Numbered from the stretch's first letter, positions 1 to 64,000 are shown. The stretch is 64,000 nt of DNA from an uncultured Candidatus Peribacteria bacterium (GCA_964456745.1 CAYWBW010000005.1:12749-76748), one strand, 5' to 3'. Made by a program: numbers and translations. Notes: generated from the sequence alone by a model not told the origin.

Positions 1-1
1 C

Positions 2-1549
2 TGGAGATACTATCCAGAACAAGAGCTATCTTCTCAAGTAATATGATTTGTTGATAATGATTGAATATGAAGATATTGAATAGAAGAAAGCTATAATGAC
101 TCACTAAAATGAAAAGATTGAATCATATTTAATAGAAAAAATATAAAATGAGAATTTATATTTTTTGACAAAGCTAGTATTAATGATGCTCAAGATTGAG
201 ACACTATTGTGCTTACAATAGATAAATCAATTCAACAAAAAACTGAGGAATTGCTTAAACAGTGAGTTATTGATACAAATGCAGACTCTTGAGAAATTAT
301 AGTTATGGATCCTAAAACATGATTTATCTTGGCATCAGCCAACTATCCATGATTTGATCCTAATAACTATTGATCAGTTTATAAAATCAGTCCAATAAAA
401 GAATTTATTCCACCTGAGGAAAATCAAGACATTAAACCCAAATCAACTGAAGATTGAATCAAACTTTATTATACTAAACCTGTATTTATTAAAAATGAAA
501 ATTGAGACTTAATTGATTTTAGAGCAGATGATGCAAAAATAGAAAATGAAGAAATAAAAGAAGCTTTTACAAAATCGTGAATTGTATTAGAAAGAAGACA
601 AAAATATATGTATGAAAATTGATTTTGACTGAGAAATTATATAAATAATAATTTCATGTCGACTTATGAGCCATGATCAGTTTTCAAAGCAATTGTTATT
701 GCAATATGACTAGATTCAAAAGAAATAAGTCCTTGAACAAAATATGAAGAATTTTGACCTATTGAAATAGATACATGAACAAGCGAAAAACAATTTATCA
801 GAACAGCTGAATGAGTATATAGATGAATTCAAACAGTAACTAATGCGATTGAATATTCATCCAATATCTGACTTGCATTTGTAGCAAGAAAACTATGAAG
901 ACAACTTTTTTATGACTATTTAACGGATTTTAACTTTTGAGAACTATATGAAATCAATATTCCTGGTGAACAAGGTTGAACACTTCAGTACTGGAAAAAA
1001 TGGAATGAAGCAAAATTATTAACAACATCTTTTTGACAATGACTTACAGTTACGCCACTACAAATGGTGACAGCATATTGAAGTTTAGCAAATTGATGAA
1101 AACTTATTAAACCAAAACTAATTAAAGAAATAATTAAATCTGATTGAACAATAATTAGTAATGATCCTGAAATAATTAAACAAGTTATTACAGAAAAATC
1201 CTCAGCCCAAATAACTTCTATATTAGTATCATCTGTTGAAAATTGAGCTGCTAAAGCAGGATGAGTAAAATGATATAAGGTAGCATGAAAAACATGAACA
1301 GCACAAATGTCATGTACGGATAGTCATAGATGTATCATTTGACGCTATGAACCAAAAAAAGAAGGTCACTTTATTACATCATTTTGATGATACGCACCAG
1401 CACAAGATCCACAATTTGTAATAATAGTGAAAATCAATAGAGCAAGAATGTGACCTAAAACATATTGATCAAACACAGCTGCTCCTATATTTTCCAAATT
1501 AACTGAATTTTTATTACAGTATTATTGAATTCCTCCAGAAGAAAGTTAA
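2..1549 (+). CDS. penicillin-binding protein 2 / FtsI-type peptidoglycan D,D-transpeptidase (5' partial)
   Basis: Frame 2 is open with TGA=Gly. The translation contains VMDPKTGFILASANYPGFDPNNY, the SxxK-region YEPGSVFK, an SSN motif (EYSSNIG) and a KTG motif (VAGKTGTAQ). Stop is TAA at 1547-1549. Confidence 0.9.
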
Positions 1550-1811
1550 ATTTATAATAACTAAATATATTAATTTTGTTTTAATGAATAAAGTTAATTT
1601 ATTTGTTTAAATTGTTTTTTTGTTTATTAACTTGCTACATAAGAATTATTATTTAGAAAAAAGAATCCAACGAAAATAAGTATGAGTTAAAGATGCTATC
1701 CAGAGTTGTTTGTAATATACTAATACCTATAAAACAATTTGGAAGGAGTCATGTAAATTAACGTTAATATTCTCTAACTATCAAAAACCTACAATAAAAA
1801 ATAAGTAAAAG

Positions 1812-1980
1812 GTATGTATTCACTTTTTAAGCAGATCGTCTTTGCGATGAACGTAATGAAATGAAGTGAAGAAGCAATCCATATGCCAGTTAAATACATT
1901 ACTACACATGGATTGCTTCGCTTTGCTCGCAAAGACAGATGTTTTGCTTAAAGCAAATTGCTAAAAAGATGAATACATAC
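1812..1980. ncRNA. candidate structured RNA, rod-like with three nested long helices (6S-like architecture; identity unknown)
   Basis: Nested inverted repeats: GTATGTATTCA-CTTTTTA..GC pairs with GC-TAAAAAG-A-TGAATACATAC (about 20 bp), GTCTTTGCGA with TCGCAAAGAC (10 bp), and GAAGCAATCCAT with ATGGATTGCTTC (12 bp). There is an asymmetric internal bubble and a 25-nt terminal loop. It lies in an unusually long (~620 bp) convergent intergenic region. The strand was not determined. Confidence 0.35.
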
Positions 1981-2104
1981 AGTAAAAGTACTTTGGAAAT
2001 TTAAAAATTATGATTTATTTACAAAAATTATAAAAATTCCAAAAATTAAAAATTTATACACAAAATCTAAAGTTGTAATTCATTTAAAATATTCTTTCTC
2101 ATGA

Positions 2105-2137
2105 CCCAAAAAAGGAGTGGCATTAAAGCCACTCCTT
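2105..2137 (-). terminator. rho-independent terminator of the 2168-2848 gene
   Basis: Hairpin AAGGAGTGGC-attaaa-GCCACTCCTT (2112-2137). It is followed on the minus strand by a T-run (A-run 2108-2111 on the plus strand). Confidence 0.7.
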
Positions 2138-2167
2138 AATATATTAATAATTAAATATGATCAACTA

Positions 2168-2848
2168 CTAAGGTGAATAAGGATCTTGTATAGTTAATGT
2201 AAATGTAGTTGTATAAGTTCAGAGCTGCTGGTACTTAGGAATGTAAATATCAAATATTGGTTGTACTCAATACATTCAAAGTCTTCATATTGCAGGTGTT
2301 GTAGCTCAAGTTCTACTTAGAATTCATAATTCTGTAGTAAATGAGAGCTCATCTCATGTAATTGTTTGTATTTCATTTGGCGCCTCTCAGTCTAATAAAA
2401 ACAATCAATCTTGTCATGTTCATGAAAATCAATCTCATCTTGATCATGACATTGTAATTTTAATTAAACTTTTTGGAATAACGACTCAAGTATTTGTATC
2501 TAGTCTTAAATCATCATTCATAATTTTTAGAACATATCAACTACCGTGTCACTTCAAATCTTCAAGTCAAAAATAAGATCATGTCAATTGACTTCAAGTA
2601 ACTGTTTGTCATGTAGATAATTCAGCTGTATCTATTATAGTATGTCAAGTAGTGTTTAGCACAGTAACAGCTGGAAATGTAATAGCACCTGGTGCAAATA
2701 TTGTCACCAATCAAGCCTCTATCTCCAGATCGACATCAGTGCTGTCGGTTCATGAAGCTGCATAAGCGCTTGATCAAATTGATAACATAAGCATTGCTGA
2801 TAGTCCAATGGCGATCGTCGATAATTTTTTTAACATAGTTTTTTTCAT
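2168..2848 (-). CDS. secreted cell-surface protein, WxL-domain-like (weak assignment)
   Basis: ATG at 2848, TAG at 2168-2170, 226 aa under code 25. It has a signal peptide MKKTMLKKLSTIAIGLSAMLMLSIGSSAYA. The body is Thr/Gly-rich and beta-type, with FGLEDLKGHGSGYVLKI and a C-terminal YTTTFTLTIQDPYSP that resemble WxL surface domains. The track ORF 2736..2945 is in a different frame. Confidence 0.6.
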
Positions 2849-61926: not shown

Positions 61927-61956
61927 TAGTTTTTAGTTTATTAGTTTTTAGTTTAT
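61927..61956. repeat. 15-nt tandem duplication abutting the epimerase start codon
   Basis: TAGTTTTTAGTTTAT occurs twice on the plus strand. The minus strand reads ATAAACTAAAAACTA twice, directly followed by ATG. Confidence 0.8.
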
Positions 61957-61992
61957 TAACTTTTGGCAAATTATCCTATTTAATCAAATATT

Positions 61993-63309
61993 TTATCAAA
62001 TTCATTCATATAAAAATCCATGCCCCTCAATAAGACCTTTATTCCAAATATTTCTTCAGTCTATTATTATATTTCATTTCATTAATTTTTTTATTCTTTC
62101 AAAATCTGGCATTCTAAATTCATCCCATTCTGTTAATATTAATAAGGCATCAATATTTTTTAATGCATCATAATTATTCTCAGTAAATATCACCCTTTTT
62201 TCATCTCAATAAATTTTCTTAACATTAGAAATAGCAACTGGATCAAATACTAATAACTCTCAAGCATCTGCCTTTAGTAATTGATCTATTACAACTAAAC
62301 TTGGAGCTTCTCTAATATCATCAGTTTTTGGTTTAAATGCTAGTCACCACAACCCTACTTTTTTTCATTTTAAATCCTTAATATAATTTTTTAGCTTTTT
62401 TACTACTTTAGATTTTTGTTTTACATTTACATCCTCTGTAGCATTTAAAATCTTAAAATCATATCAGTGCTCTTTTCCTGTTTCAATTAATGCTTGAACA
62501 TCTTTTGGAAAACAACTTCATCAGTATCAAATTCATGCATGTAAAAACTTAGATCATATTCTTTCATCAAGTCATATTCATCTGCTTATATCTCAAATAT
62601 TAGCTCAAACAATTTCTGAAAAATTTGCAATTTCATTTATGAAACTTATCTTAGTTGCTAAAAATGAATTAGCTGCATATTTAATAATCTCAGAAGATTT
62701 GATATCAGTAAAGAAAAGTGGTCTATCCGCTCTTACAAATGGCTTGTAAACTTCCATCATAATATCATTTGCTTTTTTTGAGCTTGTTCAACATACAACT
62801 CTATTTGGAGCCATAAAATCTCTTATTGCAGAACCTTCTCGTAAAAATTCTGGATTACTTACAATATCAAAATCAACACTTATATTTCTTTTTTTTAATT
62901 GCTCTTTAATAATATCATTACACATTTCTCATGTTCACACTGGTACAGTGGATTTATTTACAAATACTTTATGTGAATTAAGGTAATTTCAAAATGTTTT
63001 AGCTACTTCTTTAACAAAACGTAAATCAGCTTTATGATTTTCATCTGGCGGTGTTCATACAGCAGAAAAAATCACAGATCAAAATTCAATTCACTCCTTA
63101 GCATCCGTCGAAAACTTAAGTCTTCACTCTTTATAATTCCGCAAAACCATATCATCAAGTCACGGTTCATATATTGGAATAATTCAATTCTTTAAATCCT
63201 CTACTTTTTTTTCATCAATATCAATACAAAGTACATCATGCCCGACTTCAGCTAAACATGTTCAAGAAACAAGACCTACATACCCACTTCAAAATATTGT
63301 TAATTTCAT
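61993..63309 (-). CDS. ugd: UDP-glucose 6-dehydrogenase
   Basis: 438 aa. Motifs: [32 protein letters not shown], and the C-terminus DGRNIW..GFLYEGIG. Confidence 0.92.
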
Positions 63310-63440
63310 ATATTGATTAATTAATACTTAATATTCTCGTAAATTAATCTAGTATTTTTAAAAATACTATATCAATTTTAACAATAATCATTATGTAAAT
63401 TTTTATCTCATAAACAAGTGTAAGTGAATAATTAAATATT

Positions 63441-63713
63441 CTAGTACAATTTTGATCTATGTAAAACACAAAACAATACCACTTCCTTTTTTTCCAAACT
63501 TCTATCAAGTAAAATTCTATAATCTCACAATCTTAAACGAAAATCTACAAGCGTATAATTCTTCAGCTTTTTTACCTTCAAACCAGCTGACCAAGGATTT
63601 ATTCTTAATTCACTAATTTTGTCTTTTAATAAGGATAATTCTTTAGAAGATAATTTTCAAATATCTTTAAGCCAAATTCTCTTATTTGCAACAAGTATTT
63701 TAAATTGATTCAT
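63441..63713 (-). CDS. relE: RelE/ParE-family type II toxin
   Basis: 90 aa. Motifs: INPWSAGLKVKKLKNY..FRLRLGDYRILLD and CVLHRSKLY. Its ATG overlaps the end of the upstream Phd-like ORF. Confidence 0.8.
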
Positions 63714-63987
63714 ATTCCTCCATTACATCATCATAAGATTCTGGAATACTTTTTCACTGCCTATGATCTGTAATAACTTTAATAGTATCTTTATCACTAG
63801 CCTCAAACATTTCTTCTTTAATCTGATCTAGAAATCATGATTCAAGCATAATTTAAGACATTTCTTTTGATAACAATATTTAGGCTAATTCATTGTTATT
63901 TAATACTATTTGATAGGATTTAGAACTTGAAAACACTTTTTTTGCACTTCTCTGCAAATTTGTCATTGATACAAAAGTACTATTCAT
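63700..63987 (-). pseudogene. Phd/YefM-type antitoxin reading frame interrupted by two in-frame TAA codons
   Basis: A single 96-codon frame: MNSTFVSMTNLQRSAKKVFSSSKSYQIVLNNNELA-TAA(63880-82)-ILLSKEMS-TAA(63853-55)-IMLESGFLDQIKEEMFEASDKD...EEYESI-TAA. An ATG at 63849 could still express the C-terminal 49 aa. Confidence 0.6.
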
Positions 63988-64000
63988 AGATTTACTTGTT

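Follow-up and report, generated by a model that had tools for sequence, protein, structure and literature searches.

The window analysed here is a stretch of 64,000 nt (G000:C5:12749-76748) from genome G000, which comprises 1.92 Mb in 46 contigs at ~27% GC and is 93.2% complete and 0.29% contaminated. Our subject is the genetic code in which this stretch is written, together with the candidate tRNA and synthetases for reading it. UGA encodes glycine throughout the window and on all 46 contigs of the genome, UGG encodes tryptophan, and only TAA and TAG serve as stops, as in NCBI translation table 25 (code 25). The features of the window, with position, strand and the basis of their identification, are the following:

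1-64000, no strand: the whole window, with UGA as glycine and TAA/TAG as stops, tiled by 56 open reading frames (ORFs) at 93.7% coverage
3523-4938, minus strand: cysS (cysteinyl-tRNA synthetase), with 24 in-frame TGA codons (Pfam)
8416-10008, plus strand: gene of the Mur-ligase family, called MurF in the initial annotation, with 30 in-frame TGA codons (Pfam Mur_ligase_M)
10005-10958, minus strand: miaA (isopentenyl pyrophosphate (IPP) transferase), with the motif YAKRQMTWW at 10044-10070, in which tryptophan is TGG TGG (Pfam)
10919-11416, minus strand: def (peptide deformylase), with the motif GVGLAAPQ at 11267-11290 containing two TGA glycines (Pfam)
22078-22153, minus strand: tRNA-Thr(UGU), the sole tRNA in the window
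25722-27599, plus strand: ftsH, with 45 in-frame TGA codons, three of them in the Walker A motif GAPGTGKT at 26388-26411 (column test)
30027-32915, plus strand: uvrA, with 67 in-frame TGA codons (Pfam UvrA domains and column test)
34931-35401, minus strand: ruvC, full length under code 25 only (Pfam RuvC, 153 bits)
45442-46521, plus strand: neuB-family sialic/nonulosonic acid synthase, full length under code 25 only (Pfam NeuB, 283 bits)

Under the standard code (table 11) the window holds no stop-to-stop ORF of at least 200 aa, whereas 53 such frames, the longest of 1245 aa, emerge when TGA is treated as sense; treating TAA or TAG as sense yields 11 and one, respectively. The greedy non-overlapping set of 56 ORFs, each of at least 100 aa with TGA as sense, contains TGA in every member (56/56), and its members end in TAA (46) or TAG (10). 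TGA occurs at a frequency of 56.4 per 1000 codons in the window, where it makes up 85% of TGA+GGN. Genome-wide, TGA, GGN and TGG account for 53.3, 15.8 and 7.0 per 1000 codons, so that TGA and GGN together form 6.9% of codons, equivalent to a normal glycine content, as against 0.7% for TGG, and TGA is needed as a sense codon in 46 of the 46 contigs. These figures agree with the initial annotation, which had called the standard-code ORF track misleading, had described about 60 long ORFs that tile the window and end in TAA or TAG, and had named TGA as the most used glycine codon. The motifs that it quoted are likewise present codon for codon: the Walker A motif of ftsH reads TGA GCG CCT TGA ACT TGA AAA ACA, both Walker A motifs of uvrA use TGA (GVSGSGKS, at 30117-30140 and again at 32007-32030), and the tryptophan of NVDWCE at 24968-24985 is TGG. 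Full-length Pfam matches are recovered under code 25 for UvrA, CysRS, Mur ligase, Def, MiaA, RuvC, NeuB and others.

The amino acid assigned to UGA was read from conserved alignment columns. FtsH and UvrA from the window and RpoB from G000 were aligned to 25-26 standard-code relatives lacking in-frame stops, and columns at least 80% conserved among these relatives were taken as informative. TGA falls on glycine in 142 of the 147 conserved columns and on tryptophan in none of the 147 (FtsH alone: 28/29 on glycine, with 26 standard-code relatives; UvrA: 56/58), and TGG falls on tryptophan in 5/5; among codons with at least three informative columns, none other than TGA departs from table 11. Codes with TAA or TAG as sense were rejected by the ORF statistics together with these tallies. 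Thus, the earlier contention that TGA lies on invariant glycines rather than tryptophans, tryptophan still being TGG, is borne out, and with it the point that the correct code bears on all annotation in this stretch. Loss of release factor 2 (RF2), which had been proposed as a check, was also observed. G000 contains one gene with a PCRF domain (C4:~92.4-93.5 kb, minus strand), which carries the PLT tripeptide and GGQ and scores 474 bits against the NCBIfam prfA model (cut-off 423) and 306 against prfB (cut-off 370); the sole release factor of G000 is RF1, and RF2 is absent. As regards the Absconditabacteria variant in which CGA/CGG encode tryptophan, the conserved columns hold too few CGA/CGG codons for a tally, and the tRNA(UCG) of G000, with its A73 and Arg-like body, argues against it.

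Code 25 is known from the Absconditabacterales (SR1) and the BD1-5 'Gracilibacteria' (JAEDAM01; Campbell 2013, Rinke 2013, Hanke 2014, PMC4032931), referred to here as the classical groups. FtsH was searched for in 30 relatives, with roughly one genome for each family in the class, which makes 31 genomes with G000. In-frame TGA codons occur in ftsH only in G000 (45), G001 (40), G024 of family f23 (40) and G014 of family f13 (13). G000 and G001 constitute a recoded family, f1, which together with its standard-code sister family f2 (G002 and G003) forms an order of four species genomes; all that follows on f1 is based on these two species-level genomes and on metagenome fragments. The f2 genomes have no in-frame TGA in ftsH and carry two release-factor genes (RF1 and RF2), and G014 and G024 each have one. 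Across 150 genomes of the class, representing 34 families, a single release factor combined with in-frame TGA is restricted to f1, f13 (14/14), f23 (10/10), f29 and f30. The FtsH of G000 is 53-56% identical to those of standard-code relatives as against 45% to those of G014 and G024, and the nearest named public records are 'Candidatus Peregrinibacteria/Peribacteria'.

In a tree of FtsH and RpoB from the 31 genomes (1765 columns; IQ-TREE, LG+C20+F+G4, posterior mean site frequency (PMSF) method), f1 and f2 are united with support of 100/98 inside a 23-genome standard-code clade (98/100) that does not include G014 or G024. With UvrA added (2725 columns), support is 100/97 at the f1+f2 node and 97/95 one node further out. 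The best tree uniting all four recoded genomes is rejected by the approximately unbiased (AU) test (delta lnL 70.2, p = 2e-5), a result that is conservative because attraction through long branches or composition would be expected to pull recoded lineages together. Given that f1 is sister to the standard-code, RF2-keeping f2, and that both are nested among standard-code 'Peregrinibacteria-type' lineages, a recoding of f1 separate from that of the classical UGA=Gly clade (Absconditabacterales/BD1-5) is strongly supported by these sequence comparisons. The initial annotation had placed the stretch in the Gracilibacteria/Absconditabacteria (SR1) radiation; this stands insofar as f1 belongs to the same GTDB-type class, but not as to the classical recoded groups, outside which f1 falls in these trees.

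The gTranslate study (PeerJ, October 2026, PMC13695967) equates table 25 with the GTDB class JAEDAM01 (Absconditabacterales and BD1-5). It also reports outliers of the Gracilibacteria class with a table-25 prediction and without RF2, namely JAYELJ01 sp034717395 and five genomes of the order GCA-2401425, and ascribes such cases to possible misplacement on poorly supported branches. Like f1, these outliers are Gracilibacteria-class genomes without RF2 for which table 11 is expected and table 25 predicted, and they possibly represent the same or a neighbouring lineage. That study did not treat tRNAs and synthetases, whereas in f1 the placement beside a standard-code family was tested and holds, and lineage-specific machinery accompanies it; this argues that the f1 lineage, at least, is not misplaced in the tree. 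As a separate observation on the standard-code relatives, the uvrA of G022 (family f21; G022:C87:5194-7968) has 4 in-frame TGA codons in an otherwise open frame of 937 codons, for which contamination (the genome is 81% complete and 7% contaminated), a decaying gene or low-level recoding are possible explanations.

The candidate UGA-decoding parts are located on contigs other than that of the window. The classical tRNA-Gly(UCA), with its GCGG... acceptor and U73, which the initial annotation had led us to expect, was readily picked up by a pattern search in 19 genomes belonging to f13, f23, f29 and f30. No tRNA with a UCA anticodon was found in G000 by ARAGORN (default and relaxed), by the Rfam tRNA model at E<=10 or by a regular expression for a UCA loop followed by a T-loop, nor is there one among the 26 tRNAs recovered from G001. 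A second 'tRNA-Phe' called by ARAGORN at C2:106695 was discarded as a false positive. The 35 real tRNAs of G000 correspond to the 35 species of the f2 genome G002 (99% complete), less tRNA-Gly(GCC), which is missing from G001 too, plus one odd tRNA:

G000:C1:155235-155310, plus strand, outside the window: odd tRNA with gene anticodon CCA

This tRNA forms a normal cloverleaf; its anticodon stem is 5 bp long, its anticodon loop is CUCCAGA with G37, and its acceptor is marked by A73, C1:G72, C2:G71 and C3:G70. Both f1 genomes possess, besides it, an ordinary tRNA-Trp of the bacterial type (CCA, G73, loop CUCCAAA), from which it differs. The odd tRNA is conserved in G001 (93% identity), where it lies 12 nt downstream of tRNA-Lys, and on the metagenome contig L208. 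Covariation is seen at 4:69 (U.G, C:G, U:A) and 7:66 (G:C, A:U), and the anticodon arm is invariant. Among 151 genomes of the class, tRNAs with the CUCCAGA loop occur in 2/2 f1 genomes and in 0/149 others, the remaining pattern matches not being tRNAs. Its neighbourhood is not conserved across G000, G001 and L208; it has no close paralog in G000, where its best match reaches 70% identity, and its identity to the classical tRNA-Gly(UCA) is 50-53%. Given that UGA makes up 5.3% and UGG 0.7% of codons, two readers of UGG with no reader of UGA would make little sense, and the odd tRNA(CCA) is, on the available sequences, the best candidate for the UGA decoder. PMC8629427 gives G73 as a mark of bacterial tryptophan acceptors, and hence A73 should keep the tryptophanyl-tRNA synthetase (TrpRS) off the odd tRNA despite its Trp-like anticodon. 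The same paper gives G1:C72, C2:G71, G3:C70 and U73 as glycine identity criteria, and according to PMC3990555 alpha2 glycyl-tRNA synthetases (GlyRSs) are often paired with an A73 tRNA-Gly.

Several further observations concern the tRNAs. Without tRNA-Gly(GCC), f1 has one UCC tRNA for all four GGN codons. tRNA-Arg(GCG) stands in place of ACG in G000, G001 and G002, and no TadA-like deaminase was found in G000. Many AT-rich metagenome contigs (L176-L255) have tRNAs in which A73 and the CUCCAGA loop are combined with a G1-G2-G3 acceptor, and whose genes encode no CCA end. They resemble archaeal-type tRNA-Trp, with which the odd tRNA of f1 has loop and discriminator features in common.

A search of the relatives with the GlyRS of G000 (GlyRS1) uncovered in G001 a divergent GlyRS-like gene (GlyRS2) directly downstream of GlyRS1 and ~30% identical to it. 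The orthologue in G000 is 67% identical to that of G001, and the two G000 genes, both outside the window, are as follows:

C7:11606-13003, minus strand: GlyRS1, alpha2 type
C7:16295-17664, plus strand: GlyRS2, 3.3 kb from GlyRS1

Both f1 genomes (2/2) carry GlyRS2, and a cut-off of E<=1e-60 gives no match in the 149 other genomes of the class, f2 and all classical recoded families included. A search of 5.8 billion proteins returned only nine clusters at 90% identity, beyond which scores drop abruptly to the level of ordinary GlyRS (<=34% identity). In eight of these nine, the stored proteins have 4.6-7.4% tryptophan and 0.4-2.6% glycine, and this excess of tryptophan and dearth of glycine indicate that they come from heavily TGA-recoded DNA called with table 4. 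The arrangement GlyRS1 ... transketolase ... GlyRS2-FBPase was found again in another lineage, so that the linkage to GlyRS1 is conserved. In the literature searched, neither a GlyRS paralog nor a glycine tRNA with a CCA anticodon was found described for recoded bacteria.

GlyRS2 retains the acidic glycine pocket and the ATP site, namely the RPET glutamate, the motif-2 Arg and Glu, the ExE acids and the motif-3 EP..G..R signature. R162, E164, R199, E201, E219, E221, E310 and R317 are invariant with 46 ordinary GlyRSs, and alignment to the Thermus thermophilus enzyme (PDB: 1ATI) equates E164/R199/E201/E310/R317 with E188/R220/E222/E359/R366. Measured on columns invariant in standard-code GlyRS1, changes affect 18 of 28 in the anticodon domain as against 27-30 of 67 in the catalytic domain, and the match to the HGTP-type anticodon-binding domain (Pfam PF03129) reaches 20.1 bits, the cut-off being 21. 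The gene is labelled a hypothetical protein by NCBI. An AlphaFold model (predicted local distance difference test score (pLDDT) 75, predicted TM-score (pTM) 0.78) fits entire dimeric GlyRS structures at TM ~0.7, and all of its top 26 PDB matches are GlyRSs (TM 0.59-0.73). GlyRS2 appears to be a recent-looking offshoot of the dimeric GlyRS.

GlyRS1 itself is nearly canonical in G000 and G001, the exception being R409A, which alters the anticodon domain at its near-invariant GKRYRRQDEIGTP motif. G024 has this replacement too, and G014 shows R407C, two positions off; R409A was seen in 0/25 standard-code relatives and in 0/105 ordinary database GlyRSs. The tree separates f1 from G024, and R409A is therefore convergent; it is apparently tied to a tRNA whose third anticodon base is A instead of C. 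No T-box, which would report the sensed anticodon, was found upstream of GlyRS1 or GlyRS2 in the three f1 loci.

The gene-encoded anticodon of the odd tRNA also raises the matter of enzymes acting on C34. G000 has one TilS (C3:29611-31068, plus strand, 485 aa), in which the lysidine-synthetase N-domain is fused to a Maf nucleotide pyrophosphatase domain and no TilS C-terminal tRNA-binding domain is recognisable. The f2 homologue has an open frame of only ~289 aa and no Maf fusion. No extra TrpRS or tyrosyl-tRNA synthetase (TyrRS) was found in G000. The lysidine passages in PMC12574857 concern AUA only.

Taken together, these observations suggest, at a probability that we put at about 0.6, that f1 underwent an independent UGA=Gly recoding in which UGA is read by the odd tRNA(CCA) rather than by a tRNA-Gly(UCA) and is glycylated by GlyRS enzymes. 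In this scheme an f1-specific tRNA (loop CUCCAGA, G37, A73, C1:G72) would read UGA in place of the classical tRNA-Gly(UCA), and its A73 would bar bacterial TrpRS from charging it. Glycine would be attached by GlyRS2, in which the glycine pocket and class II motifs are kept and the anticodon-binding domain appears to have been rebuilt, and perhaps also by GlyRS1, which has lost the near-invariant arginine of its GKRYRRQDE motif. Since UGG still encodes tryptophan while the gene anticodon is CCA, C34 would have to be changed post-transcriptionally so as to pair with A and not G; conjecturally, a lysidine-type reaction of the single TilS or C-to-U editing would suffice. We infer that the odd tRNA and GlyRS2 may form a dedicated decoding pair with a modified C34. 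The complete version of this proposal, a second independent UGA=Gly code run by a natural 'orthogonal pair' in which GlyRS2 charges tRNA(CCA) and the converted C34 reads UGA and rejects UGG, is put forward tentatively, as a possibility against which the odds still lean.

Of the alternatives, table 4 (UGA as tryptophan) is what public gene callers assumed for contigs of this lineage, and database proteins of the lineage are accordingly stored with tryptophan at TGA. Such a translation would yield 6% tryptophan and 1.6% glycine, and the column tallies, with not one conserved TGA column on tryptophan and 142/147 on glycine, refute it together with the ORF statistics; we give it hardly any credence. 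Ordinary membership of the code-25 groups would instead entail a single origin of UGA=Gly, with the sisterhood of f1 to a standard-code family being an artefact of tree or taxonomy. Similar genomes have indeed been reported as possible misplacements (PMC13695967), recoded genomes are AT-rich and depart in amino-acid composition from the rest of the alignment, and our tree is built on three proteins, with G014 and G024 on (very) long branches. Nonetheless, f1+f2 receives 100/97-98 under a site-heterogeneous model with both two and three genes, the AU test speaks against one recoded clade (p = 2e-5), and attraction artefacts would draw f1 towards G014 and G024, not away from them. The FtsH identities (53-56% to standard-code relatives against 45%) point the same way, and the decoding parts differ, with f1 lacking the GCGG...U73 tRNA(UCA) and possessing GlyRS2. 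Ordinary code-25 membership is therefore disfavoured, and we consider it rather improbable.

A more serious competitor accepts the independent recoding and supposes an ordinary decoder: a tRNA-Gly(UCA) left unassembled in both metagenome-assembled genomes (MAGs) would be charged by the R409A form of GlyRS1, and the odd tRNA and GlyRS2 would do other jobs, for example non-ribosomal glycine transfer, a second reading of UGG, or regulation. Several facts that weigh against our preferred reading are at the same time points in favour of this one. The MAGs are incomplete (G000 93%, G001 94%), only 26 tRNAs are known from G001, and the 16S region of G000 is broken at a contig end, so that a tRNA(UCA) could be unassembled. 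A CCA anticodon by standard rules reads UGG, not UGA. R409A mirrors the state of G024, which has a single GlyRS and a UCA tRNA, and this suggests that GlyRS1 alone might serve an NCA anticodon, leaving the role of GlyRS2 open. Neither a second TilS nor TiaS nor a cytidine deaminase (CDA)-type enzyme besides RibD was found in G000, so that the single TilS is the only visible candidate for the C34 enzyme and no dedicated one is apparent. GlyRS2 also has difficulties of its own: it falls below the NCBIfam cut-offs (NF003211, 247.5 against 312 bits; TIGR00389, 212.6 against 243.3), and GlyRS-like folds can lose aminoacyl-tRNA synthetase (aaRS) function, PolG2 being its next-best structural match. 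Moreover, the G000 copy contains a 1-nt frameshift (deletion GAGTATAGTTCCC at G000:C7:17120-17130). In L463, an ENA assembly made independently from the same population and 99.995% identical to G000, the sequence is GAGTATAAGTTCCC with an extra A, the sole difference in 21,377 nt, and GlyRS2 is intact; the frameshift is thus an assembly error or a rare variant. Finally, both the candidate tRNA for UGA and the putative amino acid of the odd tRNA are predictions from sequence. Set against the ordinary decoder are the completeness of the tRNA set of G000, which has 34 of the 35 sister-family species and whose only extra is the odd tRNA, and the recurrence of the same absence and the same extra tRNA in a second genus (G001). 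Likewise, with UGA at 5.3% and UGG at 0.7% of codons, it would be perverse for UGG to have two readers and UGA none, and the odd tRNA, GlyRS2 and recoding occur together in 2/2 f1 genomes and in 0/149 others. On balance, the ordinary decoder strikes us as doubtful, and decoding of UGA by the odd tRNA(CCA) with glycylation by GlyRS enzymes is the reading that we retain.

Some features of the window and of its source genome lie apart from these issues. At 1.92 Mb, G000 is above most relatives in the class (typically 0.7-1.5 Mb) and above the other f1 genome, G001 (~0.7 Mb). A 165-nt intergenic repeat at window positions 1812-1976 (G000:C5:14560-14724) recurs in ~15 copies on 10 contigs at 80-100% identity, one of them between GlyRS1 and the next gene, and resembles a miniature inverted-repeat transposable element (MITE) or some small structured element. 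Translated with code 25, the window's two largest ORFs, at 16822-20547 (plus strand, 1241 aa) and 39401-42025 (minus strand, 874 aa), give no hit in Pfam at E<=1e-5. An open frame of 472 codons with only 8 TGA runs antisense to ftsH (25709-27127, minus strand) and is probably a shadow ORF favoured by dropping TGA from the set of stops, of a kind that would confuse gene callers.

The UGA=Gly code as such has already been described; what appears to be new is an independently recoded lineage with decoding parts unlike those of the textbook case. This reassignment has hitherto been treated as a single event defining one bacterial clade, and taxonomy-based pipelines assign the translation table accordingly. 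If the origin in f1 is truly separate, the reassignment is repeatable, and two natural solutions, the classical one with one GlyRS and a Gly-identity tRNA and that of f1 with a new tRNA and a second GlyRS, would be available for comparison. The long-standing question of how a cell separates UGA (glycine) from UGG (tryptophan) would then become testable, and a converted C34 would solve the discrimination problem that faces a U34 tRNA. It would constitute either the first non-isoleucine chemistry by which C34 reads A or the first bacterial C-to-U editing of an anticodon. In practical terms, public databases hold proteins of this lineage translated with TGA as tryptophan, which have 5-7% tryptophan at glycine positions, and a GlyRS-tRNA pair that evolved in nature to serve a stop codon would be of interest to genetic-code engineering.

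Comparison with known systems brings out both shared and distinctive aspects of f1. Like the classical code-25 groups, f1 translates UGA into glycine and UGG into tryptophan, has lost RF2, has a low GC content and makes heavy use of TGA, which accounts for 84-88% of its glycine codons as against 76% in G024; the change in the GlyRS anticodon-domain motif is convergent between the two. The classical groups have a tRNA-Gly(UCA) with G1:C72, C2:G71, G3:C70 and U73 and one GlyRS, whereas f1 has the CCA/A73/C1:G72 tRNA and a second GlyRS, and lies on a separate branch by the AU test. Other AT-rich reduced genomes in which, as in f1, a stop was captured once RF2 had been lost also involve a tRNA whose gene anticodon is CCA. 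There UGA and UGG specify the same amino acid, so that loose C:A reading is harmless, whereas in f1 they stand for glycine and tryptophan, and unlike the tRNAs of those lineages the odd tRNA has a normal 5-bp anticodon stem.

The closest parallel for the proposed behaviour of C34 is tRNA-Ile2(CAU), in which lysidine made by TilS, or agmatidine made by TiaS in archaea, lets C34 read the codon that ends in A but not the one that ends in G. To our knowledge these modifications are the only way for a gene-encoded C34 to achieve this, and we know of no TilS substrate with a CCA anticodon. TilS is present and TiaS absent in G000, and the parallel is an analogy of mechanism, not of membership. A dedicated synthetase-tRNA pair for a recoded stop exists in PylRS and tRNA-Pyl(CUA). 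Unlike in that pair, the amino acid in f1 is an ordinary one and the exclusivity of the pair is putative; like it, f1 combines a lineage-specific aaRS paralog with a lineage-specific tRNA, bearing an odd set of identity elements, at a former stop codon.

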